Below, piece after piece: positions 2,694-46,742 of a stretch of DNA of 64,000 bases (position 1 is the stretch's first letter; each line of letters starts with the position of its first letter). The notes under the pieces are model-generated. The model did not search any database. It was not told the DNA's origin and was given only the letters and a program-made list of their open reading frames with translations. Source of the DNA: Lobosporangium transversale (Eukaryota); NCBI RefSeq assembly GCF_002105155.1, contig NW_019028980.1, positions 992,001 through 1,056,000 on the forward strand. The letters run 5' to 3'. Position numbers and translations under genes: made by a program.

Positions 2694-5600
2694 TTAACGG
2701 GGGTCGCGATCCCGAGAAGCTGAGTAATGAGCATCAGAGCGCGAATACGACACATGATGTGGCATTTCCTGTCCGTGACGGTCCACAGGTCTCCCGTCCA
2801 TACCGGAATGATGTGGCGTATATCGACCATTATTCGAGGATGGTCCACTTGAAGCAGATCCTGACGAACCTACCGCTTGAGATTGATGTGGTGAGTGGGG
2901 TGGAGGAGGACCACCTTGCTGTTGCTGCTGTGGTGCATAGCCGCCATACCGAAGTTGATGCTGCAAATGAGATATCTGCTGTTGCTGTTGCTGCATCTGA
3001 TGCTGGAGTTTCTCAACCATATACATCATGGAGTCTTGCTTCTCCAAATCCGATCGTCTGTACACGTCCAATTGTGACAGGTACTCTCGCATGATGTGTA
3101 GTTCAGTGAGAACATCCCTATACTGCTGGAAGGAAGGGGCAGACGTCATAGCATCGGGTACAGCCATGTCGCGAGAAGGTGGGGAAGGTTGAATAGGGCG
3201 ACCATGAGAGTCAACTGTGGGTCCTCTGCTAGAGTATCCGCTGCTATATCGATAGTTAGGCTCTTCTCTTTCGCGGTTATGCTGACCGTGGACAGGGATC
3301 TGCCGACCACTAGTGGGTGATGCAGGTCTTGTCCTATCTGAACGTGAGATATCCATAGCGTCATGCATACTCCTGCTACCAGTTCGTGCATGCTTTATGG
3401 GTCTTCTACCCTCTGTAGGCTCAGCAAAGTCGCCCTGGGAGTAGTGACGCGAGTGGCTGGGAGCATGCGGCTCCGCGCTGGGAGGTGTATGAACTGGAAG
3501 TGGGGATGATAGCGGTGTAGATTGCATTGCTAATCCTTGCTTAGGATTTTCAGGAGAACCGTTTGTTGGAGATTGATATGTTTTTGGCTCAGTTCCTTCA
3601 ACTTCCCAAGTGCGATTTGGATGCTGTCCATCTTTAATATTCCCATCTGCGTTTTGTACTGGTAGACTTCGTGTTCTGTCCGAAGAATTGCGGCTAGAAG
3701 GTCTGTTGGAGGGAGCAGAGGGAACCGGGTTGCGAGGACGGCCTCTCTTAGCAGGTGTGACCGGAGTAGATGAGGATCCAGAGGGGATAGGGGGTGCTGA
3801 AGTTAAGTTCGAAGGCGTTGTTGGTTGCGTAGACGGGGAAGGAAGTGCTGGAGCAGAGGGGGAGACGGGCGTAATAGTTGCGGGTTGAGTGCCTTCTTCC
3901 TGGTTTTTTGACGTTTTTTGTTGCTCTGTATCACTACGGGACTTCATGTCTTGATCCTCATCTTCCTCAAGCTCATCGTCTTCCTGAGGCTGGCTCTGAT
4001 CTTTGGATTCCATGAAGGTATCCTCCTGTTCATCAGAATCTGACATGCCTGATCCACTATCGTCATCACCCGAGTTACCCTCATCCAGAGATCCTCCTTG
4101 ACCTGACATTTTCATAAGATTGATAACTTGCTTGACAAGATCATCATTGGCTTCTTTCATGTCATCTGGAATGTTGCCCTTGTACATTCGCTCTCGTAGT
4201 TGATAGGGCTTAACCATCCTGTTCACTCTTCGAATACACTGACGGGCGTGGACCTTCATTCCAAGAGCATCACGCACATCTTCCCAGGCCTTTGCAACCT
4301 GGCCCACTTTCTGCGCAAAAGGATTTAGTCGGATGGTCTCAAGAAGAAGGCGTCTATCTGTATCTTCAGAACGATATCGGCGCTTTTTCTGCATCCTTTT
4401 GAGTGCCTGAGGCTGGTTCATCATATCAAAGAGCTGCTCCAACAGTTTCTTCTTTGTTGCTTGTTGCTCCTCCGTCCCTACTGGTCGGTCACGTCCAGCA
4501 ATGCTTGCCTGGATGATATTATCGAATCGTCGAGAGCAAGTTCTCGCTCTGATACCCTGCTCTCTAGAAATCATCTCCCATGCTTGGGTGGTCTTTCGGA
4601 TAGCGCAATTAAACGGATCATGTTGAAGGACACTGGTCAATAAGCTAATCTGAATATCAATAGGAAGAGGTCCTTTAGGGGTACCGCGAGCAGATTGGAT
4701 CTTGAAAGGCTCATCCTTCTTTTGTTGATGCTGTCCTGAGTTATAGTGTTGCTGTTGAGAATGATTAGCTCTGCCAAGCCCTGAATCTTCAGAACCGGGA
4801 TATCGAGGAGGTCGGGGGGCAAGTGGTGGTAGCCCATCAACAGGAGCAGAACCTGAATATGCGTGGTAATCTCTCGAATAATCGGCATAGGCTTGATGGT
4901 GAGGTTTTACAACATTCGGATCTGTGTATTGATAAGGTGTACCATGATATGGTTCACGTTCACGGTGTGGCATGTGATGCGATTTCGGATCGCTGATCTG
5001 GCCATACCGATACCGACTCTCATGGTCTGAATATCCATCGGAGTCTGAATTGTGTCGATGACGTTTGCCTTGATATGATTCTGACGAGTCATGGGACGGA
5101 GTCATGGTTGGATATGTAGATTCGGAGTAATTTCTCTGTAGTGACATATCTGGGTGTGGTGGGCGCATTGGATAATGTGGAGGCGAGCGAGGTCGCATAA
5201 CGGGTGCATGACGGGTAAACGATAAATGTCTATTGCTGGCAGAAGGCGATGCGGGGCGTGACCAAGCCGTAGAGGAATTATTGTAATAAGCTTCGTTGTG
5301 ATACGAGCTGTTGAATTGATGTGGGAAAATATGAATAATATTAGAACATGTATAATTTTATACTTCCGTCATGGGTAGCGTTTTAATTGATCATATCGGT
5401 AGAAACAAAAATGTCGACAAAAGAAACAAAACAAAAAAAAAAAAAAGACAAAAGACAAAATGGACTATGTGTATTACGAATAAGCTCTGGCGCTGATTGC
5501 TCAATTGTCCAGGCAACATCTGTGATCATAAACAAGCTGGTGGGATATAAATCGTTACCTTGAAGGCGGATGACGCTCGTGCTCACGAGTGTCCATGTAC

Positions 5601-29639: not shown

Positions 29640-30144
29640 TTCGTTTTAGTCGAGGTTAAAGAGGATGAGAAATGAGGTGAGGTAGAGCTAATTTTTTAAT
29701 TTTAATGATGGGAAAATTTCTGGTGTTTCTTTCCTCAATAAGGTTTAGTCAAACCAAACACAGAAATTTATGTGCATACAACAAAGAAGAGCATTGGCTT
29801 GAATGTACATGTACACCATTGGTCTTTGTTTTCATGCTTGACTTCTCTGACATCGGATGCTGTTCCGTAGCCTCATATCACCTTTCAAATAGAGAAATGC
29901 CTCGTAGAATAAAAATATGGTCTGGCAGTGATGATTTTGTATCTCTTTTTTACTTTCCCTCCCTTTTCCTTTGACCTTTTTCGATTCAGCGTGGTTCGGA
30001 GATGATCTGGCACCAACAAGATCTTCTGTAAATTCATATACGGCATTCCTCTTTAAACTTTTTGTGTTTCTTTTTGGAAAACCACTCAGAAGTTACTGTC
30101 GATTGAGCGATTGTGACATTTTGCTCTTTGACAATGTCTACATG

Positions 30145-30363
30145 TATTGTCCTCGTCATTTGGTCATGCACATATTGTAAAAATATATTGATTGAATTGG
30201 CCCCAGAAAAAGCGCGTCACATTGAATGGGATTTGTGTATTGAATCGGTGGCTGATTTTGGCCACCAACTCATTTAAGATTATTCAAAATTCTGAGCCGA
30301 CCAAATCAATTCAATAATTATATGTTTTTAGAATATGTGCATGACCAAATGACGAGGACAATA
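30145..30363. mobile_element. MITE with a 32-bp perfect inverted repeat including probable TA TSD (Tc1/mariner-like)
   Basis: TATTGTCCTCGTCATTTGGTCATGCACATATT (30145-30176) is the exact reverse complement of 30332-30363. Non-coding interior. Confidence 0.85.
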
Positions 30364-30603
30364 TATACTGTCAAGCAAATATATATATAATACTCAAGAA
30401 CACAAAGTAACGTTTGCTCTGAAAGAGCTTAAAGTGCACTTTAATTATTGCATCCATACTAGAACACAAAGAATATGTTTGTATTGTTGGATACAGGTTA
30501 GATATCTAGAAGATATCAGCCCTTCATGCCTCGACAAGTAGACCATGCGGCTTTTATTGTAAAAGTGAGATGAATAACGAAGAACGATGAGGGCGGGACA
30601 TCT

Positions 30604-33600
30604 TCACTCCATTAGATCGACATGCATGTTCTCCTCCTTATGATGCTGGTCATTATTGTCGATGCTGTCGTATGTGCCGCTTAGGATAAAATGTGCAACT
30701 TCACACTCATCACATTCGCTACATTTGCTGCATATGAATCGATATCCCTTAGTCACCTCACTTTTAGCGATCAATAATCTTGCTCTGGAACCGTCCTTCT
30801 TTGAGTTCGTATTCGAAACATCTCCTCCCAGCTCTTTAGCCTCTAATGGCATAGGCATTGTTGTGTTGATATCGTGGCTTACTTCAGGGGAAGTTGGACA
30901 CTCTGTTGGATCATCAACAGCTCCATATTGTTTCAAAAGCTTTCTGTTGGCTTCACTTAAGCCAGCTACGTCTCGAATGCTTGCTTCGGAGGCATTAAGA
31001 ATTGATTGCTTTGTGCTCCACTTCAAGCGGGTATGGCATTGGCCATCCTCACTCTTGGCAATCTGCCACATCCGAATAGAGCCGTCATCATGGCCTGTAA
31101 CCAGAAAACAGCCTTCCTCGGAAACATTCCAGACAAGAGCTTCAACGTAGCCTCCTACATATGGAATAATAGCCAAGCACTGGGCTGACTCTGGGTCCCA
31201 TAGTCGTACAGTCGTGTCAACACTACTTGAGGCAACATATTGGCCATCACATGAATAAGAAATGGCAGTTATACGTCCGGTATGCCCTTCAAGTACATGC
31301 AATATGTTGCCTGATTCAAGATCTACCATACTAATTGCCCCTTTTGCACTTCCAACTACCATCAGTTGGCTGGATGGTGAAAATGAGATCTTCCTTTGAG
31401 GCTTATAGAATTTTGTTTCATGACAGAACTGGCCTGTCTCTGCGCTCCATAGTTGCAGTTTCATAGAGTCCTGGATAAATGCTAGCTTTAGGCTGTTAGG
31501 AGTATAAACCAAATAAGAGGTACTATATCCCACGCCTTCTAACTCGTGCAGGAGATCTTCTGAGTGTGCTGTCCATATTCTGATCCTATTAGCTTCGTCA
31601 TAGGAAGCAATCTGGTGGCCACTAGGCGAGAACAGCACGCCTTCCACACGACTATCATGTCCCTGTAGAGTGCGTACAAGTAGTCCTGTTTGAGTGTTCC
31701 ACACACTCACGTTTCCGCTTTGATGACCACAGGCAATTAGGTGGCCAATGGGTGAAATATCAGAGGTCACGATGTCGCCGTCCTGATTTGGTGAATCTAG
31801 GGCGTAAACAACTTGACCCGATTCAGCATCCCAAAGATAAAGGTGCTGATCACCATTGAGGGTGCAAAAGGCAAGCAGTCGACCATCAGGTGTATACTTG
31901 ACATCGTTCGATCGGCACTGCAAAACATGAATACATTGTCCTGTTCGACTATCCCACACGCGCACTGTATTGTCATGACTGCATGAGGCTATGTGTTGTC
32001 CATCTGGTGAAAACCTTACTAAGGAAATTAGCTTTGTATGACCATATGAATGGTGGCTAGACTGCCGTGAATGTGCGTCCCACAGGCGTATCGTTCCATC
32101 TTTGCTGAATGATGCAATCTGATGACTGTTTGGCGAACACGCCACACCATATATAATACTGGAGTGACCATATAGTGTGTTGGTCAGTTGTCCTGAACGG
32201 GCATCCCAAAGCCGCACTGTATTGTCCCATGCACAAATGACTATCTGTTCTCCATTTGGCAAATATTTCAAGTCGATGATAGAATAGAAGTGATCCAAAA
32301 GAGTATGAATCATTTCTCCTGTTTGCATATTCCACTGAAATGCCGTCTTCCAGGAGAATGATGCGGCATGCTTCCCATCGGGAGAATATTGGACATCATT
32401 AGGAGGGAAGCTATGCTCTAATGCCCATTTCTTCTGACCAGAGCTTGCATCCCACACATCCAGCGAGTAACCGTAGTAGTCACGAGTGATGATTTCTTGG
32501 CTGTTAGGTGAATATACGATTTGTCTGACCTGAGACCCAGAGTCCCGGAGCATCAGTACCAACTTCCCTGATGACGTATCCCAAAGCCGTACCGTCTCGT
32601 CTACGCCTCCAGTTGCAATCTGCTTCCCGTCAGATGAATACACCACGTTTGTCACCTCACCAGTATGACCCTCTAATATGTATTGGACCACGCCAGTCCT
32701 GGTGTCCCATACATGCACTGATCCATTTTTACTGGCTGAAGCGAGGCGGCCGCCATCTGGCGAGTACACTGCATAGTTAACAATGTCTGTATGGCCCTTT
32801 AAGGTTTGAATTAATGCACCCGATGTTGTATCCAGCACATGAATTGCGCCCTTCCCATACCAAACGGCAATGTGTCGACTGTCTGGAGAGTAGATAAAGC
32901 TGTAGTTGCGCACATTGATCTCCAAAGTCATTCGCTTCTCCCATGTCAACGTATCATAGATGCTGATGTAACCATCGCTACTTTGCCTTTTGTTGATAGC
33001 TGCAACGAATGTCTTGCCATCAGTCGAATACGATCCTCTGAATACATATCCTCCTTCACGAAGTAGTGCCCATTCTCCGAACCGTACGCCTGCCATCTTT
33101 GCTCCACTCAGGTCTGCTTCTTGAAGCCAACACCTGCTAAGGTTGACGTTCCTCAAATCTGCTCTTTGTAGCTGAGCACAGTCAAATACTCCATGACTAA
33201 GATCTGCTCCTGGGATCTGGATATCTCGTAAGTCCGCCTCGATGAACGATTCGCCTGCTCGGACTAAGATCGTCATTGCATTCGCTGCTGCTGTCCGCCA
33301 TTTTTTATCACTCCTCGATAGCTCAACATACTCGTACAGCTGGCGCTTGAACTCGACTTCCATTCGAACACGATCTTTCAGGAACTCAAGGATAGATGGC
33401 TCGTTGACAAAGCTTCTCCAGACTAAGGGCGAGTTCTCATCTACCTTGACTAAATTTACTTCCTGCTCAACCATTTTAGTCTCTTCAGCCTCAAAGCTGT
33501 ATATGGAGCCAACACTGTGCCGGCGGCAAGTCTGTGTCGCTGCTACTTCTCTACTGATCGCTAACGCATTCGTCACTTCCTGTGGTTCAAATATCGCTCG

Positions 33601-36600
33601 CACCACACAATACTCTAGAATGGAGTGGTGAACAAATCGATACTGATTGCCTGTGCGACTCAGAGGCGATGCTTCTCGTAAGAGATCCTTCCTGCTCTCT
33701 CTGCTAAAATACTTCTCTTTCCATGTGTCCTTATGTTTAGATGGAGAGTATTCCACCACTGGGTTACCATCTTGATGCTTGTAGATCTCCACAGCTAAGT
33801 CTGTTAGGTACCTGACCCCATTCTGTGCGAAGCCTTCATCACACAGCGTTCGGAACATTCTCTTATCTGATGCTGATATCTCGCCTAGCCGCTTCTTGCC
33901 TCGTTCGAACCACAGCTCAACGAACTGGTCATACAGAGTGATGCGTTTAATCTGCTTTCGGGATATATTCTGATGCGGGTCTACCATCCGTGGCAGTACT
34001 TCCAGTGACATCGATAGTAAGAATGGGTTCCTTACAAGCTCTTGTAGGCTAGGAACCATCTTAAGTGCACGCCGGTAGTCCTCCACACCCCACAGTAGAT
34101 CCATAGTTGCAACATACTGTTCAATATAGTCATCGATCTGAGCCTCAGAGAATGGTACAATTACAGCCTCTTGGAATAACCCTACCTCTGCTTGGCGGTT
34201 GCGGTCCATAGGCTGGAAACGGTCTCGATAATCTGTCCCAAGATACTCGCTGCGACAACTAACCACCATCTGACACATCCACTCGCCAGGCTGGTTGAGA
34301 CGGTTGGTGACGTACAGATTGTTGGTCTGCATGGTCTCATCGTACCCATCACAGATCAGGATGAATGACCGAGCCATTTTCAGCTCCTTGATCTGTTCCT
34401 CGGTGAAATCATGCATTCGCAGTTGTTTAGCGACCATATCCTTGGTTGGATTATCGATGGATGGCAGGTTGATAAACAATGGGATTTGACCATGATTTTT
34501 CCGATACGCCTCCCAAAGAGTGCACTCTAGAGTTCGGTTGAATGTCGATTTGCCTACTCCTGAGTCGCCTTGGACAAGCATCACCTTCTGGTCACTATCC
34601 AGGAACTGCTTCACCTTATCCATCAGCAAGAATAGTTTGTCATTACTTGCTTGAGGGTTCGCTTTGGCATATTGTTGGATGTAGAAATACTTGTCATCTC
34701 TGGTCTCCATTCGCTGCCGCTTGAGTAAGCGCAGACTCTTCTCGACATCAGGCTTATTCTGCACACGGTCAAGTAGTGATGAGGATAAAGGTGGGGTCTG
34801 CGCGCCAATGAAGGGGTACTGGCTTACTGGCTCATCAGAACAATCCTTGTAGAGCTGTTGTTTGTTAGCGTCTCCATCTATAGCAAGATCTCTCAGGAGT
34901 GAATTTGCAGCTACAAATAAATGCATGTAGAACATAGTGTACTATTAGTCTCAGTATCCTCACTTCACAATTGAGTTGATGCCGAGGCCGCATATTTACT
35001 CACCTTGTAGGCCATCCGTTGACAGCGAAGCTAGTCCCTTCAGTATACTAACAATACATTGCTTGATCTCCACATGATGCCTCCAATCCTTGTCATTTTT
35101 GTACATCTCCCCAAGGAAAGCAACCGCATCTTGTCGAGTCTCCATAGTCCATTGTGTGTTAGCAGCAACCCGTCCCAGCCGCTGACACAATCCCCACTGG
35201 AATGCAAGCTCCTGTCGGCAAGGTGCCTCACACACAAGAATCTTGAACTTGGTGAGTTCGCCTGTCTGGAGAAATGCATCAGCTCCACGGAGTGCTGGAT
35301 ACCATGCAGTCTTGCGACTAAAGCCAAGTGCTTCTTCCATAATCTGCTTAAATGCCGCTCCGCTCTCGTATAATGGGATTGCATTCTCATACAAATCTGA
35401 CCCCACGTCAACAATATCTGCCGCAGATGGAAGTTGTTCCTGGATATCGCTTAGTTCATCCACGAAGGTATTGAGGTCCCAGTCTTTGACCGCACTCACT
35501 ACTCCAAATATCCCTCGTACCACTGCTGACGTACGCCGAAGCATGGCTTGCATAGGCGTTTCATCATCTGGAATATACAACAGAGCTTGGAAGGCGTAGG
35601 CTGCATGGTATACCAGATGAGGATCTGAACTATCTTTTAGTCCCTCCAAATAGGCTGCTAGTGGCTCATGAAGCTGTTCTCGCTTCAGACCCTTGACTTG
35701 ATTGTTAACCATGGCATCGAGCACGTGCGAAACTGCCACACACAGCCGATAGACGTGGCCGCTAGATTGCTCATGCGTTCCCTGTAAGCGAGAACTGAGG
35801 GCACTGAGGATGTTAACCAGATCATCAGAGTCGAGGTACTTGGGAGAAGCATGCTGCATCAGCTGAACTAATCCTTCCAGCAAGTGGGTCTCCAGCATGA
35901 TATTCTGACCGATTCCATTGACCAAGGTCATGAGTATTGTCCTATATTGGTCATAATCGAGAACTGGAGCCAGAGCCACAACCTCAGCAACAGTAGCCTC
36001 AGACTTAATATCATCGTGGATAAACAGTGTAATCACATCTGAAACCAAGTTGTGAAGTCGATCTTGTTCATCTTGGTCATCCAACCTGGCCAAACACCAT
36101 TCCTGTTCCTGGGCTGTGAGGTCATTTAGTGGTTGATGTGCAAAAGAAAGTAGGCTGAGACAGTAGACGAGCTGGTGGATATCGATAAGATGAGTATCTG
36201 GACGAGGCAGGTTGTACTTGAAGATCACTCGCGCTACATCATGGCGGAATATTTCTCTTGGAATGATTGCAACACTGTATGTTGTATTGGTTCTCTCTGC
36301 TTTAATTATCTCCTTCGGTCTATTGATACTGGTGCCACTGCATTCTTGGTTAGTATTGGTGTTGCTGTTGCATGATAGCTCTTGGCAGGTGATGTTGCTC
36401 CCTTGGACATAACCCCACTTCTCTGCCTTTCTATCACTTTTTTGTGCATCACTTGAGCGACCTAGGCGTTCGAACAAGCGAGCAATTTCAAAGTGGGCCG
36501 AAGCGATACTTTGATATAGCACCATATCTTCAAGGGAACCTGAAGAGACAAGGTCCCTCCTCTCCGACCGCTGGATTCGAGACAATGCAAAGTTTGCATC

Positions 36601-36732
36601 GAGGCACAGCTCCGTGAGGATATCGGGGTCATCATTCATTCTCTGAGTGTCCTCCATGTAAAGGTTGAAGAGTTTCAGCGCCTTTGATGGCGAGAGGACA
36701 CCTCGTGACGAAGTAAACCTAGTGCCAAGCAT
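30604..36732 (-). CDS. NLR-like STAND protein: helical/ARM-like N-terminus, NACHT, pentapeptide repeats, WD40 repeats; about 2011 aa; exons 36732-35004 and 34910-30604
   Basis: A phase-1 GTGAGT...TAG intron joins the 578-aa and 1443-aa ORFs. Walker A GDSGVGKS, Walker B LICDGYDE, NPFLL motif, A(D/N)L pentapeptides, many GH...WD repeats. Confidence 0.92.
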
Positions 36733-37431
36733 TTTTTTTTATTATTATTGTTTTTATTTTTTCGCCAGTACTCTATTGATTTTAATGAAAGAACAACCAT
36801 TTTGAATGGCAATATTAGAGAGTAGCTTATATTTAAATGGATAAATGCGTTTATACGGATCGTGAGTGTTTGCTGCATACAGCTATTTCCGAAAACGTCG
36901 ATATGTAAATGGTTGGCTAGGGAAATGCTTCTTTATGAAAGGGGTATTTAGTGCGATTCAAGAAAGGAAGGAGAAGAAAAGCAAAGGGAAGGTAGATGTG
37001 AAAGAAAGAGAGGAAGAGGATCGACAATTGCAAACAGGGCTTTGCGAAGTCGAAGAGCCCATTTGTGTTCTGTTTGTATTTTACCAAGCGAATAACCATT
37101 AAAAAATACCTTGACGAAATCCTCTAGCTCCAACTTTCGACTCAATCCAACAAAAAAAAAAAGCTCACTTTTCTCAATAGAAAAATCTGTGATCACAGAA
37201 TAAAAAAGGTTGGTCCCAAAAACATCGCAGTTTAGAGCTGTTCTTGGCCTTTTTTTGTTTTGCTTCTCTTTTCTCTAAATATTTGTAAACCAGCTGTAAA
37301 GATATACATGTATGACTTGAATTGTTGCCCGCTACCTAGACAACGAAAAGACTTTTTTTTTTTTTTTTTTTTTTTTTTCGATAACAAGGACTTTCAAGAA
37401 GAAAATAATGAAAAGATAGGAAAATGAAGGG

Positions 37432-40400
37432 CTAAGTTTGAATAGCTAATATACGGGAAGTCTTTTTTTGGTGGGACTCCTTCCTCAACTTCTCCAAAAA
37501 GCTTTTGTGCCGCTTAGAGCGTGGTCTGCCCTTTTGATTGCCCTTGACAGGGTTCTCTATGTAAGTGCTGTCTCTTCCTTCGATGATGGCCTCTTCTAGT
37601 TTGCTTAAGACTGCATCATAGACATCAGGATCATTTTCCACAGAATTGACTGGGCGCTTTGTCAGCGCTGTTAGAGCTGCATACTTCCGTTTTCTGGATA
37701 TTAGAGCCTGGTCTTCTGAGGGGACAGCGATTGGAGGTACGAAAACTCTTCTCAAATCGTCCATGTAAGTGATCGGTGGTGTCTCGCTTTCCACTTGATA
37801 ATGTGACATGGCATATTGGAATGCCTCTGTTGAAACATCAAGTTCAGGATCGTCTTGCAATGTGTCTCTAAACCATCGCCTTGGGATCAGGCTAATATGA
37901 TACCTACATCTCGGGGTAACTGTCGTCAAATGGAAAAAATGGCGGCACACAATTCCGGAATTTTGCAAGAGAAGACAAGAGCAGACGTAGGAACCGTCAT
38001 TGAGGACTACAAGCTGTTGCCGTTCCGCTCCTGTGTGGTCCAACATGTAGGTGACCTCGTATGCAAATGTGATCTGTTGTGTCCCGATTCTGGAAACAAA
38101 GGAATCTAGTGAGAACTTCCGGCGGTCCTGCCTTGCGCTCAGCTCAATGCGCTAATCGTGAGATGAAAAATAATAAATAAATATGTATATATTATATTTC
38201 TATATATATTTTATTTTTATTTTTTAAAACAAAATAAAAAATAAAGAAATCATCTCACCTCATTGGGCTCATGGCTTCCATTTCTGGAGAGTGGAGCAAG
38301 GAATTCGGCAGGCTCGCAGAGCTTCGAACGATAATAGAAGGACCGGATCATCTCCATAGCCATTTGGTTCCTAGCCGCAACACCAAGGAAGTGATTGTTC
38401 CTTTCGTAAACCGAATTAAATATTTGCCTTGCAACAGTAGAGACGGTGGGTCCATCGTTCTGATCCATTCTGTATAAAAGGTACTCTGAAGTCCGCTCTT
38501 GTGATGCAAGTACCTCCTCGATTTTATCGAATAGAGATACAAGCTCTGTCTTCCTGGAGAGGTTTTTCTTCAAGACTGCGTGGATCCCTTTGACTCTCTG
38601 TGTCGACGCCATTCCTGCTGTAAACTTCACGCCAATCCAAGCCCACGCCCACTTCGCACGCTTTTGGTAAAGCCTATTCAGGTAGGACCGCACCTTCTCG
38701 TCCTCCTCACCGTATACAGCGACCTCTTCTTCCCACCTTGTTTCGAATTCGTGTACAGTGATGGAATTTCTGACCCTCCAGAAAGAAGAGTAGAAGAGCT
38801 CCCATTCGTCACGCAGAGGGCTCCGAAGCTTCTTCTTAAGGTTCTCGCTCATGTGCCAGATACAGTTGAGAAGGATCGTATCGGCAAGTATGTCACGGCA
38901 GGCTGCCTCCATGGCTGGGTCATCATCCACAATTATCACACCGGGAGCCTTTCCGTCGCATGCTTCTAGTAAAGCACTCAATATCCATGCATAGTCCTCG
39001 GTTGTCTCGTTCAAAACTAAAGAGCTTGCCACAAGGCGGCTTCTGCCAGCGCTATCCACCACAACAAAGACGTTCAGGTACATGTTGAATCGGTTGGTGT
39101 TTGATGTGTTGTCATTCAACACAACATCTCGGTAGCGACCGTAACAGGATCGTTGAGAAGGCGACATCCAGAAAACCTTGCTGAGTCTATTTTTTTGATC
39201 TCGCTCTATTTTGAAGAACCAACCATTGTCTTGGCGAATTCTGTCCTCCAGCACTTTAACCAGCGCACTAGCTTCTGAATAGTCGCAGGCACACTTCTTG
39301 AGCGCCTTAACTTTTTGGATGGCATTGGATACTTGTCGACGATGGAACATCCCTCCAACGAAATCCGTCTGGAGGAGGTACATTATATTATCTAAGCTGA
39401 GGCCCCCTGCAGCATAGTGGCCTATCTTTCCTAGGACTTCCTGACTCAAGGGGTCGATGTGTACGCCGGCTTCTACTTCGCAAGCATGATTATGTTCGCG
39501 CTCTAGCGTGGTGATATGCCAGAGCGGAGCAATTATATTAGGGGACCTAATGGTAAGCTTGAAAGGGCATTGCTTACGTCCTGACTTTGACCTCCGTTGC
39601 ATAGATGGATCAGAAGTCTTGGAAGATTTACTTTTCCCTGAGTGCTTGCATAAAAAGACCACTATTTGTAATAAGAAGGAAGTTAGAGCTATAAATCTAA
39701 CAAGTAACAAAAAAAAACAAAAAAAAGACGTGTCTTTTACCACGGGGCCGTTCACTATAATTAGCCTGTCCAATACGCGCTCTGAACCCACTGCGTCTAG
39801 CCCACGTTTTGATTGCGGCCTCTGCTTCAGGAAAGCTGTCAAACACATAGTGGAAACGAGGCTCCCAATGAGCAATGTCCTTTGAGCCAGCCTCACTAGC
39901 TAAATTAGAGCATTGACGCTCTTCATCATCCTCTGTCTCCTCCCCGTTAGTATTCCTTTGACTATCCTCATCGGTATCGCTTAGGCGATAGCCTTCTCTG
40001 TCATAGTAGCCCCCAGTTTCGCTATCACTCTGGCTGCCATCACAACTACCACTTTGACTCTCACCCTCGACGTCCTTTTGTTGGCCACTTTCCTCATCTT
40101 GCCCGACTTCACTGCTGTCGCTTGAACCTTCCTTGGGGACCTCGGGGACCTCGGGGGGAGAAAGCTATAATGAAGGCCGTAATATGTCGATGGCTTCAGT
40201 GAACGGCATTTAGGCCCTCAGCGCCGAAAGGACTTAACATATCCAAAATGGAATAGTTATTTAGACTACTTACTGTGGAGTAGGCGGTTACTAACTCAAG
40301 CATGCGCATGCGATGTTCTACAGCACTCTGGGGCTCCCAGAGGCTTATGCTTGGGTTAACAGCATGCTCAATTGCATTGAGAGCAATTATTCCACATGAA

Positions 40401-41365
40401 CCGCTTGTTGATGGTTGCCGGGCGATACGAAACAACCCCATTCCTCTCTTCCATTTATTTTCTCCAATTTTGCAGGCCACCAGCCATTTCCTGATCCCAG
40501 ACTCTACAGTAATTGGGCAATTCATCGCAAGAGAGTCACCAAATGACAACTCCTGGTTGATGAAGTCGATCTGTACGGCTCCCCAATGATCTAAATGCTG
40601 CATGTGGACTACAGCGAAGGCCTTTTCGACTCGCCCACTTTCAAGCTCTTCTTTTTTCCAGAGAAATGACTTGTTGTATTTAGTGCTGCTCGTCCATTGC
40701 TGGATTCTTAATGGTGGGATGAAAATATACTGATTATTGGCTGTATAGTGCTCCGAAAAAAGGTCCAGGACAAGACGTATTGCTTCGTCATCGATGTATT
40801 GCTCGTTCCTGAAAAACAAGGCACTGCTCAAGTTGAGTGGCACATGAGTAGATGCTCTAAAGCTTAGTTGCATAATGTTTGGGGCATTGAGTAACTGGTC
40901 GCGGAACCAAACAGCAAATGGGTCTCTCGCAGAAGAGGCATTGTCCCCAATCCATTTCAGCATTTCACGGATGCCTCTAGCCATATCCATAGCTTCGAAC
41001 ACTATTGGGTCGAGAAGCTTGATTGTCGTTTTATCGAAATTACCGAAGCTACCGATCCTCACGGCCCAGGAGCCTTCATTTGTATGGGAGCGTGTTCTTG
41101 CCCCAGTATCAAGCTCGCCAATAAGGCGTTTAGCGTAAAGGAGGTTCTTGGCCGAGGGAATTGTTTGGAGAGTTGCGATTTCACTACAAGGAATGATTGA
41201 ATTCTCATCCTTCTTGCAAAAAATGCCCTCGATCGCGGCCTCACTGATCTCGGTAACGCTTGGGAAAGCCCAATTAAGCAGGTCCCGACCAGTCAAGGCT
41301 TCCCTCCACTCACGGCTATAGGGGGTCGATGGTCCGGAAGAAGGAGTTTGGTTGGCAGAAGTCAT
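37432..41365 (-). CDS. Mutator-like (MULE) transposase with an N-terminal Ulp1/C48 peptidase domain; predicted exons 41365-40274, 40164-39741, 39661-38259, 38151-37432 (about 1212 aa)
   Basis: Ulp1 motifs HW, GDSL and QPSTSGSCG. Acidic linker. FAR1-type domain (FDSFPEAEAAIKTWARRSGF...CKH...CPF...HNH). MULE core LNDNTSNTN, IIVDDD, CIWH. SWIM finger CSC...GIVCRH. Three GT-AG introns preserve frame. Confidence 0.82.
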
Positions 41366-41769
41366 GCTTCCCAAACTAAATTTAAGATATTAGATGAGCT
41401 GTACCGATACTTTCATTAACTTTCCATTATCAGCCTGTCTACACAGGTACGAAAATCGGAAGAAAAAGTTTCAGTATGTACTTAGGCAGTTATAGTTACT
41501 GGAAATAGGTGTAAAGCACGTTTTGTGAGGGAAGAATGATGGCTTTTAAAGCAAAATTTCGAAATCGCGGAGCTTGGTCCTCTCTGGTCCTGTACTTTTA
41601 TTAATGCTATTTTACAGGATCCTAAATAATACTGTTAATCCGGTTTAGGATCTCCTCCATCTTTTACTCATTAGGTCAAAACATCGTGTACCATTTTTGT
41701 CATTAATTTTTGACACTCAGCGTCATGATAGAGATGCACTGTAAACACTAATTCAGCATGCTTTGCTGC

Positions 41770-42175
41770 GTCGGATCCGGCGCTTGCAGCCTGTGCTCTG
41801 TACTATATCCTATTATATATCTTTCCTGTTGCATGTTCCCTAAAATTTACATCCGACGTCTGTACTCTGTGTCACATACCGAATCCGGCATCTGCAGTCT
41901 GTACTCTGCGTTACATTTACTATTCGTTTTCTCTTCCGTACCTTTCCTAAAATTTACATCCGGCACCTGTACTCTGTGTCGCACATCGGATCCGGCATCT
42001 GCAGTCTGTACTCTGTGTTGCATCTTACTATACGCTTTCTCGGTCGTATGTTCCTAAAATTTACATCCGGCGCCTGTACTCTGTGTCACACACCGAGTTT
42101 GGCATCTGCAGTCTGTACTCTATGGCACATCTTACTGTACGCTTTCCCTGCTGCATGCTCCCTTACGTTTATACC
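41770..42175. repeat. Tandem array, 107-bp period, about 3.8 copies
   Basis: CTAAAATTTACATCCG at 41840, 41947 and 42054. CTGTACTCT at 41860, 41899, 41967, 42006, 42074 and 42113. Confidence 0.93.
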
Positions 42176-42296
42176 TGGGGGCAAATAGGGCTCGATCCGG
42201 TATAAATATGCACTAGAACCCACTTTTCGCTTTGCAACTAATCTACCTCACTCAATCCGCTTACTTTCCATTAGAAACCATCACTTTCAATTCAAA

Positions 42297-43899
42297 ATGA
42301 AGTATATCAGCATTATTCCTGACTTTTTGACTCTAAAATGGCTACGCAGCGCCAATAGAACGGGAGAAGAGCTGATTCAGGCTCTGCTCCGTATGCCACA
42401 GCCGGTTACAACAGGAACACCAACTTATCTGGAAAACCCCTCCGACGACGAGCTCAAAGCCGCTCTTCAGCGTGATGAAGCCCTTGCATTGCCGGCGGTT
42501 CCTTCTGTGCAGCCCGGAGTCATCCGGGAACTACAAAACAAAGACTCTAGCTGTCTGGCCAATTTTAAGGAGTTTGACTTTTGTTACACAAACGAAGCCG
42601 TCTACGCGATAAACGAGGTAAGCTTTGAGGTTGATGTAACTGCTGCTTTATGTACTTTATAATATTCACAACTGAAGCCCTTTCATATCCTATATTTTAT
42701 AAGGCGAACCTTACGAGGAGGTTTGCAGAACGCCGCAAAAATGAGTTGGATTGGCTCGCAACTTTTGCCAACGGACCTGGTAAGCTTCACCGCGACTTTG
42801 CTACCTGGCTCAGCCAAGAAATCAACCAAAGAACCCCTGTCCATTGTATGATGTTCAATCAAGAGGAGTTCGACAATTCACATTCGCATATAGAGAGTAT
42901 AGTTTCTCTTGGCACGGATGAATGCCTGAACGTGCACGCGGTCCGTGGCATCTTAGCTTTTTTCCGAAAATGCTATGGTCAAAACGGTCGTTACTTGTTC
43001 TTGGACCCTTCCTTGAGCTTGGAAGATGGGCCGAGTCGAGTGGAGAGGAAACTTATTGAACGGGGTAAAACCGAAAAGGTGTTCGCTATTTTTATGTAGA
43101 GGATTACTGGACTGCTGCCTACCTTGATCTCCCTCAATATCGGGCTTATGTTGGTGATTTCTGCTGTCGAAGTGAGAAGTATGTAGCTGAGACTCTAGTG
43201 GCATGGTTGGCGCCACTAAGCGTGGACAAAGAAAGGTGGAGGCAAGCTCATGAAAATATGGGCTCATTCCAGGTCCGAAAGTGCCGAAAACGGGACTCTT
43301 GTGGCATCCATGCTGCAATCGCCATCGAACAGGTCGTCAACCCATACGCCACCTGGGGAAACTATGTCAATACCGTATACCAGAGGATCCGATTCTCACG
43401 GTTATTGACTGGTAATCTAAAGGTAATGTCTACTTCTTGTCAATTTCATTAACAGCTAGGGAAGACAATATCTACGTGAACATTAATCACTTCTGATCAT
43501 TAGGTAAATATGGATTTTATTGCCAACGCCTTTAAGAAGCAAGTTCCTGAAGGCCCAAATGAGCCAACACAGATTGCCTTGTTTGAGAAGGAGCTACAAG
43601 CAATATACTTGGATAACAGGAATGATGTGGATGTCTTCGATCAGGTTCTAGCATCGGCAAGGAAGGGCAAACGGAACATTCGGAAACTGCCTTTGAAGGA
43701 CGAGGCTCAAGATAGCGCGGTTCCCGTACTAAAAAAACGGTGCATTGTTGTCGAATCCGATGACGATATAGCCTTTATTGGATCTAACGGGCCACTTAGT
43801 TCTAAGACTCAGGATGAGCCTGGCACCGATACAGTTTTTGTTGAGCACAAAGCAGCTAATAACCACTTGAAGCGCAGGCGCACCAAGCGGAGTAACTAG
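42297..43899 (+). pseudogene. Second Ulp1-like gene, frameshifted and catalytically degenerate
   Basis: Exons about 42297-42617, 42703-43422 and 43504-43899. Aligns with the 40.3-41.4 kb Ulp1 domain (DSCGIHAAIAIEQVVNP vs GSCGIIALNAIEHAVNP). Frame break at the T5 run 43089-43093. HW reads YW. Confidence 0.7.
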
Positions 43900-44060
43900 T
43901 TACCTAGAGGAAAAGTGGGATAAGGGTTTTTGCTGATGGACAAAAAAAAAGACTTCCTTTGAGTATCTTTGTACAATCTCTATTAAAATGATCGAAACAA
44001 TTAATTCTATAAGCAAAAGCCTTGCAGATTGCATCTGTGTCCTTTTAACATCACTCATTC

Positions 44061-44097
<37 letters not shown>

Positions 44098-44171
44098 AGT
44101 TGGTCGTTTTTCAACCAAAGGGTCCCTTCTGGTTACAGCAAGTGCCTCAGTGAGATTTGGGCTAGATTTTT

Positions 44172-45592
44172 TTATTTCAACCTGTTTGCGCCATCGTCGA
44201 CGTCCTCAACTTCAACTGATTTACGTTTTGTCTTATCCTCATAGCTGTTCATCGCTTCTCCCCCCACTTTATCTCTCTCCTCTTCATCCTTGACCTCCAC
44301 TAGGTCTTCTTCATGTCCCTCCTCCATCTCTTCTCTTTCTTCTCCCTTATAATCTTCAGGCTTTAGTCCTGCTTTAGTAAACACCTTTTTTGGGTCAAAG
44401 AGATGATCATTATTAGAGACTCTTTTCTCCTCCCCTTTATACTTTACAAAATCCTCAGTCTTCCATCCTTCTTTTTTTAATATTCCTTTCAGCTCCTTTA
44501 TATGATCATCATCGGTCATATCGTTAGTATCGCTACCATCAGTATCCTCCTCTTCATAATCTTCATCATCCTCAGGCTTCGATGCTAATCTTGTAAACAT
44601 CTTTTGTAGCATCTCGGAATAAACAGTATTCAGCGGAAGTCTCCTGGTGTCTACTATGGACGGTGGGGGCATACCATTGGCATCTGCCCTGGCCTTGAGG
44701 GATTCCATTTGATTTGGGCTTATACAATGACCTAATGGACAGATATAAATTTTAGAGTGAAAAATATATTAGCCTCTTAAAAGTCCAAAATGTTCACGCC
44801 AGAGAGCCTCGCTTACTCGGGGTTGACGTCTCAATCTTACCTTCAGTCATAAGTGTATGAAAGAGAGCAATGGATCTTTGTGTCCTGGCTTCTTCGCGGA
44901 CTTTTTTTCTTGCAATTCTATTATTTTCTTCCAAGGAAATGGACAATCGACTCAACTCATATGTCATGTTGACTATAAGGGGTCGAATCTTGGAGATCTC
45001 CGCCTTGAGATCAGAGAGCGAGGGCCCCTCTTGGACCAGCTCCTTCTCCGCTTCCTGATTTTCGTCAAGTTCAGCAAAAAAAAACTCGCGCTGCTTTGAT
45101 GAGCTCTGATGTTACGTTAGATTTTTTTTTTATCTGTGGTTTTTCGACCAAAGTTGCGCCAATGGGCTTGCTAGGGACGTTGCTAGTCACTGCAGAATTC
45201 TGGTGCTCTTTCTCAATTTCTTCTGGAGCCGGCCTATCAGAGGCAGTGGGGCTGTCAGCGAAGACAGGGCTGCTAGAACGAGTAATGGTAGGATTGGTAT
45301 TAGTGTTGCCAGAAGCTTGGAAGGGGTCTTCCATGAACTTCCTGCACTTCTTGTGGTGCTTTGGAGGGTCCGATGCGAGGTTCGATATGTGATTACAACT
45401 TATATGTGGACAAGCATAATAAAAAAAGCGATTGGGATCACGGTCGACAGTGAGAAGGTCACCCGTATAATGCGATCTAAATTTTATTGTCCTCAAGGAG
45501 TGATATTCGTTTATGTGCGCTTCTGTCCCATCCTGGATTTCGAGAGAACATTGACCGATATCGAATTTTGTGCATCGAGGAACACGGGGCAT
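44172..45592 (-). CDS. Unknown protein: N-terminal Cys/His motifs, coiled coil, acidic tail; apparent frameshift at the homopolymer near 45080
   Basis: CPHISCNH...HHKKC motif. Reading resumes in another frame (FFAELDENQEAEKE...). A GTAAGA...TAG intron near 44840-44732 joins in frame to the 178-aa acidic ORF. Confidence 0.55.
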
Positions 45593-45897
45593 GATGAAAA
45601 CGAAGACGAAGGTGAAAAAAGAAGTGAAATAGAAAGGGAAGAAGCAAAAGTCTTTGTTATACTTCGAGGCTCAAACTGCATTCAAATCCCTCGACGCTTG
45701 GTTATCTACTAGCCCCAAATAGGATTCGAGTATGCTTAGTCACAAAGGCCATTCGGAGGTAGAGAGAGTTACAGTTCTGGAAAAGACACTGCCCTCAATC
45801 CCGCCTTGCCAAAAGTTGTGAACAAATATAAAAAAGCCTTGTATATTATATAATGTATAACAACTCTGTTGTTTTTTTTTTTTTTTTCACTTCAATT

Positions 45898-45985
45898 TAA
45901 GGCCCTTGCCAAAAAGTCATAAACTGGATATATTTTATATTTTAAATTGAATAGAGTACACATCCTTTTCTTTACACAAAGAAAG
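45898..45985. mobile_element. Degenerate solo end of the 46461-46679 MITE family
   Basis: 33 of 39 bases match the MITE TIR, and similarity continues into TTTAAATTGAATAGA as in the MITE right end. Confidence 0.7.
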
Positions 45986-46179
45986 GCTCCCATTGTTTTC
46001 TCAGTATATTCCAAATTTATTATCAGATTTGGTCCTTCATGGCGCACCACTAGTGACTGGCAGTTGTGTGATGCATAATTGTCTGCAATGTTCTTTAGTA
46101 GGTGAGGTTTATTGCAAAGGGAAAAAAAGAAAAAGTCTGCAGACAGCAATAAGAACGTTAAATCTTATTACGAATGTAA

Positions 46180-46287
46180 TTAACCGCACCGCCACCGATT
46201 AACCAGTTATCACAGGTTTTCACCAGTTTAACCGTTTTAACCAGTTTTAATCTGTTATAACCGGTTAAAAATATGTCAAAATCGCTG
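46180..46287 (-). mobile_element. Possible hAT-like transposon terminus with subterminal AACC(G/A)GTT repeats
   Basis: Minus strand begins CAGCGATTTTGACA, followed by clustered AACCGGTT/AACTGGTT/AACGGTT motifs. No partner end seen. Confidence 0.35.
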
Positions 46288-46460
46288 CTCATCTCAGAAG
46301 GGACGTCAGCGCTTTGGGCAATGGTATCTGCAGCAATATCTTATTGAAAGCGGAGTGGAGGTGCGGTAGTTATTCCTAAAGCTTACACTTTTCTTAGATA
46401 CGCTTAGACAAAGCAAATTGCGGTGGCATTGCGTCCTTCTTTTTTCTTCCTTGATTAGAG

Positions 46461-46679
46461 TAGAGTCCTCGCCAGAAAGTCATGAACTGGATATATTTTA
46501 AAATACTCAATTTGAATTATTATTTGCAAAAATACAATTTTCGTACGAAGCTTGAAAAGCACAATAGAAAAAAAAAAAAAAAATTCTCAAAATTCTTGAT
46601 GTCCAAAAATGGAAGTATTCTATTCAATTTAAATGCCTGAAAAATATATCCAGTTCATGACTTTCTGGCGAGGACTCTA
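46461..46679. mobile_element. MITE with a 39-bp perfect inverted repeat including probable TA TSD
   Basis: TAGAGTCCTCGCCAGAAAGTCATGAACTGGATATATTTT (46461-46499) is the exact reverse complement of 46641-46679. Confidence 0.88.
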
Positions 46680-46742
46680 GTTCCTGCATTAGTAGCAATA
46701 ACAATATTAGTATTAAAAGGGTCTTATTGGGCATTTTCTGGC

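Follow-up and report, generated by a model that had tools for sequence, protein, structure and literature searches.

The gene described here lies on the minus strand of a 64,000-nt stretch of the Lobosporangium transversale genome (the window) and comprises four coding exons and three introns, the third of them predicted, encoding 1,212 amino acids without stops (Table 1). Its product follows the order Ulp1-FAR1-DDE-SWIM that had been put forward in the original prediction, with the protease domain in front of the transposase. The two are fused in one spliced transcript. In sequencing run X5, which is probably RNA and comes from one study, a single 3,863-nt contig omits exactly introns 40273-40165 and 39740-39662. 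It spans 38300-41511 with no other letters and no gaps relative to the window, and its joints, 40164/40274 and 39661/39741, read CT..AC on the plus strand and GT..AG on the gene strand, with 255 letters on the short side. Both introns are thus located as predicted (phase 0, and phase 1 with a CTAAC branch), and the two junctions proposed as a transcript check occur in one contig. No run matching the window is on record as RNA and the RNA status of X5 is our guess; we accepted it because two GT-AG introns are skipped exactly and the contig stops 146 nt above the ATG. The contig was assembled from short words and is one contig from one run. Within its 5′ leader, two short frames open at upstream ATGs, one with 3 codons and one with 8.

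Table 1. Features of the fusion gene and its surroundings (window coordinates).
Feature	Position	Strand	Remarks
Likely 3′ untranslated part	37353..37431	-	Ends in a genomic 26-nt A-run; deduced from contig size
Exon 4, coding, aa 974-1212	37432..38151	-	SWIM-type motif and C-terminal KGRP motif
Intron 3, 107 nt, phase 0	38152..38258	-	GTGAGA...CTCAC...TAG, 87% A+T; deduced from sequence and contig size arithmetic
Exon 3, aa 506-973	38259..39661	-	Remainder of FAR1 and MULE RNase H-like core
Lys863 (AAA)	38589..38591	-	Third DDE position (catalytic Glu); aligned with Glu of the RAESAH motif in P0001
Intron 2, 79 nt, phase 1	39662..39740	-	GTAAAA...CTAAC...TAG, CTAAC branch motif; absent from X5 contig
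Exon 2, aa 365-505	39741..40164	-	Acidic Ser/Gly-rich linker and likely first third of FAR1 domain
Intron 1, 109 nt, phase 0	40165..40273	-	GTAAGT...TAG; absent from X5 contig
Exon 1, coding, aa 1-364	40274..41365	-	N-terminal extension, then Ulp1/SENP-like (clan CE) domain at about aa 130-355
Protease active-site codons	40394..40588	-	His260 40588-40586, Asp277 40537-40535, Gln317 40417-40415, Cys324 40396-40394
5′ leader	41366..41511	-	In X5 contig, whose start need not be the transcription start
107-bp tandem repeat	41839..42146	.	2.9 copies, 85% matches; separates the two divergent Ulp1-like genes
Second, divergent Ulp1-like gene	42297..43899	+	Head-to-head with fusion gene; predicted introns 42618-42703, 43423-43503

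Intron 3 is predicted from the sequence. By contig arithmetic, the last 798 letters would end at 37354, in a T-run behind the stop, if this intron is spliced and at 37461, within the coding frame, if it is retained. Given this third intron, which had previously been left unnamed, the predicted size of 1212 amino acids is correct.

The acceptor of intron 1 is ambiguous from sequence alone, as 19 of the 52 AG sites between 40230 and 39750 preserve the frame, and is settled by the joint 40164/40274 of the X5 contig. If intron 1 is kept, the frame stops at 40196 and yields a 389-aa product, and public databases (NCBI, UniRef, eukprot) represent the gene only by this unspliced piece; exact look-ups of five unspliced alternative products gave no match. 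The database entries speak for two genes as annotated, namely a protease of 389 aa that stops at 40196 and a 769-aa transposase that starts at ATG 39848 and reads through intron 2. That ATG does open a long frame when intron 2 is retained, and minor retained-intron transcripts are possible since contigs drop rare forms. However, the sole transcript contig skips both introns, a start at 39848 would swap the front of FAR1 for out-of-frame and intron sequence, and the out-of-frame ATG yields only 78 amino acids once intron 2 is spliced. We consider two separate genes very improbable. Transcripts ending near 40196 next to a transposase with its own start, the outcome set against the fusion when it was first proposed, are contradicted as the main form by the X5 contig.

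The protease His, Asp, Gln and Cys, said in the original prediction to appear intact, were all found. H260, D277, Q317 and C324 follow the clan CE order, align with yeast Ulp1 (1euv) and SENP5 (9gnn), and are kept in P0003, a Mortierella homologue of the protease exon that is 37% identical to it. P0003, the sole homologue found, is incomplete and comes from a contig of 2.8 kb. Pfam Peptidase_C48 (PF02902) has no match in the window protein or in two sub-stretches of it, and P0003 itself stays under the cut-off (E 0.0054, 17 bits vs 20.7). A two-sequence profile matches yeast Ulp1 at E 0.0015, and the Atlas matches for P0003 belong to Peptidase_C48 clusters in 26 of 30 cases, the remaining 4 being SENP-like. 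A single-sequence AlphaFold model was unusable (pLDDT 32.5). With a low-confidence structure model (mean pLDDT 38.4), the best 10 Foldseek hits are all Ulp1/SENP/NEDD8 (NEDP1) proteases (E 2e-4 to 8e-4). VIA-align with the same low-confidence model returned SENP5 (Z 10.0, rmsd 4.5, 161 aligned) and SENP3 (Z 9.9), and nearly all of its best 29 rows are proteases of clan CE or effectors related to them.

The assignment of the N-terminal domain as Ulp1/SENP-like is therefore supported by the Mortierella homologue, the profile search, the language model and the fold search. It has the fold and the His-Asp-Gln-Cys order in common with the Ulp1/SENP/NEDP1 proteases (peptidase C48, clan CE), but it is only 12-18% identical to solved Ulp1/SENP members, scores under the Pfam cut-off, and its Gln-Cys spacing is one residue longer than that of yeast Ulp1. 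Furthermore, the Ulp1/SENP protease domain is usually C-terminal, whereas in the window protein it is N-terminal. Judged from its sequence, this predicted protease would likely free nearby proteins of SUMO or of a related modifier.

The transposase part matches Pfam MULE (PF10551) over the full profile (1-99 of 99; E 7.1e-18, 65.3 bits vs a cut-off of 27.6), and its Atlas neighbours are FAR1-MULE clusters. A match to IS256 (E 0.0011) is far under its cut-off, and solved structures gave no match to exon 3. Taken alone, the exon-3 part of the FAR1 domain scores below the Pfam threshold (PF03101; E 1.1e-5, 26.5 bits vs 28.1, profile 33-88 of 90), and a Pfam scan of the exon-2 tail by itself returned no match. 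In exon 4, no Pfam or NCBIfam match was found, SWIM included; this exon carries a CxC-x9-CxH motif at aa 1030-1044 (37983-37939), which we take as a candidate SWIM-type zinc finger.

Exon 3 contains Asp689, a cluster of Asp at 751-753 and the motif C772-x-x-H775, and aa 821-865 hold three Trp, one of which is aligned with a Trp of P0001, a transposase-like protein described below. A CxxH motif and a conserved Trp between the second Asp and the Glu are described as a Mutator transposase feature in the available text of PMC5225508. The DDE triad is incomplete, with Asp689 and the Asp751-753 cluster present and Lys863 as its third residue; this assignment is from one pairwise alignment with P0001, at 29% identity. 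The Lys863 codon is identical in the X5 contig, and a single G-to-A change accounts for it. In Muta1, replacement of the DDE Glu by Ala abolished transposition (PMC5225508, in part). With Lys rather than Glu as its third catalytic residue, the transposase part is, on sequence grounds, likely unable to cut DNA, and any activity of the protein would be that of a protease tethered to DNA.

Neither terminal inverted repeats nor a target duplication (8-11 bp) were detected around the gene in a search that included self-BLAST of the window. The 168 direct-repeat pairs examined for ends had at most 13/25 inverted matches inside, and local alignment of 36740-37431 with five right-hand intervals produced only short purine-rich or chance-level matches. 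The best end candidate (score 32; 0/50 and 1/50 shuffles) was discarded as a 23-nt purine run, and so was the inverted-repeat element at 46461-46679, for want of a partner left of the gene. Some Mutator elements with ULP are themselves reported to have no recognisable terminal repeats (PMC4948706; PMC2528002 section 10; both in part). With Lys at the third catalytic position, and neither terminal repeats nor a target duplication detectable, this copy has probably lost its mobility, and 'transposase' describes its ancestry rather than a likely present activity. The Glu-to-Lys change and the missing terminal repeats did not figure in the original prediction. Self-BLAST found one copy of the gene within the 64-kb window. 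Its flanking genes include a NACHT-WD40-type gene and a hexokinase. The level of CpG depletion does not set the gene apart (0.72-0.82 vs 0.62-0.78 for its neighbours).

The second Ulp1-like gene, at 42297-43899, is broken by a frameshift near 43097 and has Tyr in place of the catalytic His. Unlike the fused protease exon, it is a separate gene, on the opposite strand. Its intron behind the protease domain occupies the same position as in the fusion gene and leads to a different last exon of 131 amino acids without transposase similarity. The family thus also exists in unfused form, its intron in the matching position, and no fused relative was found in two size-restricted protein searches, as would be expected if a stand-alone Ulp1-like gene had lost its last exon by local accident and now splices into a downstream transposase remnant, giving a chimera without selected function. 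All four exons, however, are in frame without a stop. Exon 2 moreover joins the linker (29 D+E and 28 S+G per 98 amino acids) and the front of FAR1 in one frame, with neither an in-frame ATG nor a trace of a separate first exon, which leaves the transposase without an evident start of its own; the earliest Met past exon 1 is aa 526, within the FAR1 domain. We regard such an accident as quite unlikely.

In the two protein searches, exon 1 against proteins of 638-2000 amino acids gave no fused relative among 2852 candidates, and exon 3 against proteins of 819-2335 amino acids gave one match among 6228, P0001, which begins inside the transposase and lacks a protease domain. Both are weak negatives. 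Pattern matches in metagenome contigs (0/24 and 0/104) and viral contigs (0/68) were not confirmed as related loci. The literature searched contained no Mutator transposase with an N-terminal Ulp1: PMC6446971 makes no mention of Ulp, C48, peptidase or protease, C48 appears solely as a filter term in PMC5751038, and C48 and MULE appear solely as Table S4 rows in PMC10799480. Ulp1 accompanying Mutator is well known as a separate gene or in a downstream position; Ulp1 in front, as predicted here, appears to be a new arrangement in the literature searched.

In animal MuDR transposases (hydra, lancelet), Ulp1 is C-terminal. These proteins and Ginger1, as far as their partial descriptions go, resemble the window protein in having protease and transposase in one spliced polypeptide. 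The Ginger1 transposase is integrase-like, however, and its Ulp1 or OTU protease, proposed to act on SUMO/ubiquitin during transposition, is C-terminal (PMC2836005, in part), whereas the window protein is Mutator-type with the protease N-terminal. In Medicago MULE transposases, a WRKY-GCM1/FAR1 domain, the core, SWIM and a papain-like protease form one protein (PMC1702500, in part), but that protease is of the OTU type and C-terminal, not Ulp1-like and N-terminal. Plant Kaonashi elements and other C48-MULEs (Arabidopsis KI-MULE; melon, rice and grapevine ULP-MULEs) carry a Mutator transposase and Ulp1 (peptidase C48) in the same element and include Jittery/FAR1-like families (PMC4948706; PMC2528002 section 10); the window gene is likewise predicted to be FAR1-type. 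In the available text of these sources, ULP lies behind the transposase frame as a further gene that can face either way, whereas in the fungal window Ulp1 forms the first exon of the transcript that encodes the transposase. For rice, fusions of ULP proteins with MULE domains have been reported (main text of PMC12903978); their domain order, given in its Figure S7, is outside the present comparison. The FAR1/FHY3/FRS and fungal Aft/Rcs1 transcription factors have a FAR1-MULE-SWIM core like that predicted for the window protein and are immobile and expressed but, in the literature searched, no Ulp1 domain is reported for them. Domestication of such genes is defined by their conservation between species.

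One alternative is a domesticated host gene, in which the fusion would be retained to deSUMOylate (or deNEDDylate) proteins at targeted sequences, as a chromatin regulator made from a non-cutting transposase. Consistent with this are (i) the open 1,212-codon frame, in which the DDE Glu is gone but the protease residues remain, (ii) clean splicing in an unbroken contig, (iii) the absence of terminal repeats and target duplication, (iv) the presence of 0.93-0.99 of the words of the stretch in four DNA runs of three studies, one of them marked as a possible source, and (v) the origin of Mutator-derived transcription factors at least 2 times in fungi (PMC1702500, in part). One short contig with only G-to-A changes also suggests, weakly, that exon 2 is without CpG methylation. 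However, the DNA runs may all come from one strain, a single G-to-A change suffices for the Lys, no fused orthologue was found (P0003 is partial and on a short contig), and the surroundings, with a broken paralogue, a tandem repeat and a small inverted-repeat element, resemble a mobile-element island. We hold domestication to be somewhat unlikely, although an intact 1,212-codon frame without terminal repeats suits it at least as well as it suits a recent dead copy. Its fullest form, that the fungus domesticated a Mutator transposase as the DNA-targeting arm of a sequence-specific chromatin deSUMOylase, from an undescribed Mortierellaceae lineage of protease-first Mutators hidden by split annotation and the Pfam miss, seems to us unlikely.

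From what was observed, namely both splice junctions, an open frame, the order of the domains, four protease residues and Lys863, we propose a model that we consider about equally likely to be right or wrong: the transcript joins a Ulp1/SENP-like exon to a FAR1-type Mutator gene and is the immobile, expressed remnant of a protease-carrying element. Its ancestor would be a Mutator element which resided in a Mortierellaceae-like fungus and, like plant Kaonashi elements, harboured Ulp1-like genes; one of these genes would have become joined to the transposase via the phase-0 intron behind the protease domain. While the element still worked, its tethered protease would have acted against SUMO-linked silencing or inhibition at the DNA of the element itself. 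This copy would later have lost the catalytic Glu and, showing no ends, would persist as an immobile yet expressed remnant, whose protein likely binds DNA, likely cannot cut it, and may deSUMOylate nearby proteins or strip them of a related modifier. As no second copy or fused relative turned up in the searches of proteins, metagenome and viral contigs, a fused ancestral element is something that we infer.

The importance of the locus is limited by its one copy, its likely dead transposase and conservation that is not established. It nevertheless exposes a blind spot: public annotation truncates the gene at intron 1 and Pfam does not recognise the domain, so that fusions of this kind would be undercounted. 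The literature gives no agreed reason for the Ulp1-like proteases of so many unrelated transposons; in the available text of PMC4948706 the function of Kaonashi KI is called unknown, and that of the Ginger1 paper offers only a proposal for the role of the protease (PMC2836005). The fungal fusion bears on this question, as it combines the same two components in an independent way, with the protease preceding the DNA-binding domain. With its intact protease residues and transcript support, it would allow a compact test of whether a tethered protease acts on SUMO at FAR1-bound DNA.

The original prediction of a Ulp1 peptidase spliced in frame to a MULE transposase placed introns 1 and 2 at 40273-40165 and 39740-39662, where we find GT-AG ends in phases 0 and 1 and, in intron 2, the predicted CTAAC branch. 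Its frame of 1,212 amino acids is open, although a third intron (38258-38152), absent from that prediction, is also required: with all three introns removed, the four exons join into 3,639 nt with the sole stop at the end. As 19 of the 52 AG sites downstream of the intron 1 donor would preserve the frame, the acceptor is not decided by sequence alone. The 9.9-kb stretch is contained in five of the seven listed sequencing runs, none of which is recorded as RNA (X5 is guessed to be). Over 38300-41800, four runs were compared: X5 gave one contig, X7 six short pieces, and X2 and X4 none. The X5 contig (3,863 letters) follows the window in three pieces (41511-40274, 40164-39741 and 39661-38300) with no other letters and no gaps, and its joints omit exactly 109 and 79 bases, bridging both predicted junctions. 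Because it drops two GT-AG introns and starts 146 nt above the ATG, this contig is best read as cDNA, from one run of one study, the two junctions sharing a contig and not necessarily a molecule. By length arithmetic, 798 of its letters remain after exon 3. With intron 3 removed they would reach to 37354, in a T-run beyond the stop; with intron 3 retained they would finish at 37461, within the coding frame. From this we infer that intron 3 is spliced out.

NCBI, UniRef, nr and eukprot hold the unspliced 389-aa protease product, and the public annotation therefore splits the fusion gene. That this two-gene annotation is correct, the transposase having its own start, appears very improbable, as the X5 contig skips both introns. 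Exon 2 has no in-frame ATG, the first Met after exon 1 is amino acid 526, and the out-of-frame ATGs (39848 and seven others) give 2-78 aa after splicing, so that a transcript starting in exon 2 would be without a usable start.

Exon 1 has no Pfam match and reaches SENP5 by phmmer at no better than E 0.33. The sole outside homologue found is P0003 of Mortierella sp. AD094, marked partial and from a 2.8-kb contig, which is 37% identical over 89% and keeps the HW, GDS, Gln and SCG residues. P0003 matches Peptidase_C48 below the Pfam cut-off (E 0.0054), its Atlas matches are C48 clusters (26 of 30) and SENP-like clusters (4 of 30), and a two-sequence profile of exon 1 and P0003 matched yeast Ulp1 at E 0.0015. 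The predicted protease model is weak (mean pLDDT 38.4); its Foldseek top 10 are Ulp1, SENP and NEDD8 proteases, and VIA-align places SENP5 at Z 10.0 and rmsd 4.5 over 161 aligned residues. The catalytic residues predicted to be intact are present (H260, D277, Q317 and C324), the Gln-Cys spacing exceeding that of yeast Ulp1 by one residue. These lines, which are not fully independent, agree on a putative divergent clan CE protease.

Exon 3 carries a full MULE domain (Pfam E 7e-18) and, at a score below the Pfam cut-off, a match to positions 33-88 of the 90 in the FAR1 profile, its last two thirds; the front of FAR1 is presumably the end of exon 2, a tail that alone has no Pfam match. The Atlas neighbours of exon 3 are FAR1-MULE-SWIM clusters, with no C48 among the ten matches listed, and exon 4 carries a CxC-x9-CxH motif. 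The Ulp1-FAR1-DDE-SWIM reading is supported but needs one correction: the transposase is probably dead. Asp is kept at the first and second catalytic positions, as is CxxH. The third DDE position has Lys863 where P0001, a transposase relative without the protease domain, has Glu, and the X5 contig reads the same letters there. Since replacing any DDE residue of Muta1 with Ala abolished transposition, according to PMC5225508, the fusion protein is likely unable to cut DNA, judging by one alignment and one family member. Self-comparison and alignment of the flanks revealed neither terminal inverted repeats nor a target duplication around the gene. As an autonomous element it falls short in its DDE triad and its ends, and it does not qualify as a Kaonashi-type two-gene element.

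The kept frame, the kept protease residues and the missing ends would suit domestication of the fusion as a host gene, a possibility we regard as rather unlikely. A weak hint in the same direction comes from X7, whose library type is not on record and whose short contigs have G-poor loose ends and G-to-A changes, as bisulfite conversion would give. In its contig over 39988-40134 (depth 3.5), the 21 other letters equal in number the G of that stretch, and all 11 of the changes listed are G-to-A; as three of them lie at CpG, exon 2 may be unmethylated. A local chimera without function is less probable still.

Features of the window outside the fusion gene
Feature	Position	Strand	Description
Open frame	2694-5357	-	887 aa; no Pfam match at E 0.001
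Small element	30142-30366		Just behind WD40-repeat gene; 47-bp inverted arms, 94% complementary
ARM-repeat and WD40 gene	30604-36738	-	ARM_5 E 2e-76; many WD40 repeats
107-bp tandem repeat	41839-42146		Shared upstream region between the two Ulp1-like genes; 2.9 copies, 85% matches
Second Ulp1-like gene	42297-43899	+	Head-to-head with fusion gene
Three open frames	44172-45670	-	199, 105 and 198 aa
Small element	46461-46679		219 bp; perfect 39-bp inverted ends

The window is eukaryotic in character, with short introns and many A-runs, and the Mortierella origin of P0003 makes a host of the Mortierellaceae type likely. The fusion-gene region is flanked by the ARM/WD40 gene ending near 36.7 kb, which contains a P-loop-like GDSGVGKS stretch and which we take to resemble the NACHT-WD40 receptors expanded in Mortierellaceae, and by a hexokinase gene from 47.8 kb. 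The block at 37.3-46.7 kb resembles an island of mobile elements. Its second Ulp1-like gene is 23-28% identical to the fusion protease in two pieces (E 5e-8 and 7e-5), with a frameshift near 43097 and Tyr in place of the catalytic His. A predicted intron (43423-43503) lies at the same place behind its protease domain as intron 1, which independently supports the intron 1 donor. The 131-aa exon that follows it does not resemble the transposase; the protease would therefore be a module closed by a phase-0 intron, after which different exons can stand. The tandem repeat could serve the FAR1 domain as an array of binding sites. The three open frames, which show a Cys/His motif, an acidic segment and what is likely a coiled coil, gave no Pfam family above cut-off in the two scanned, and may be further cargo of the island. 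The outermost letters of the 219-bp element could be a TA duplication, and a third copy of its end lies at 45898-45936 (33/39 matches, same direction as the left end). Over 36800-46700, X5 has 0.65 of the sampled words compared to the 0.39 of the stretch covered by the fusion contig, and other parts of the island may thus be transcribed too.

The association of Ulp1 with Mutator is established. In the sources cited here, Kaonashi elements carry Ulp1, of unknown function, as a second gene, some without terminal repeats (PMC4948706); in grapevine, Jittery-like families included, it follows the transposase frame and occurs in either orientation (PMC2528002); Ginger1 transposases have it C-terminally, and hydra, lancelet and plant Mutators contain it (PMC2836005). 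Others likewise describe it as recurring in the non-transposase proteins of active plant elements (PMC12973397) and as fused with MULE domains in rice, in the order given in Figure S7 (PMC12903978), and report a C-terminal OTU protease in Medicago MULEs (PMC1702500). No protease-first Mutator or fungal case was found in the full-text literature, mostly outside subscription papers and Repbase Reports. Judged by this literature, the protease-first order would be what is new relative to the known Ulp1-Mutator pairs, and it may be rare; the fusion would work like a protease-carrying Mutator protein.

We favor, at about even confidence, the following model. A Mutator element with Ulp1-like cargo would have been the source, its protease exon becoming spliced to the transposase. 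The FAR1 domain would tether the protein to the element's own DNA, where the protease would act on the transposase or on chromatin proteins close by, freeing them of SUMO or a related modifier. The present copy, having lost the Glu, would be immobile and still expressed.
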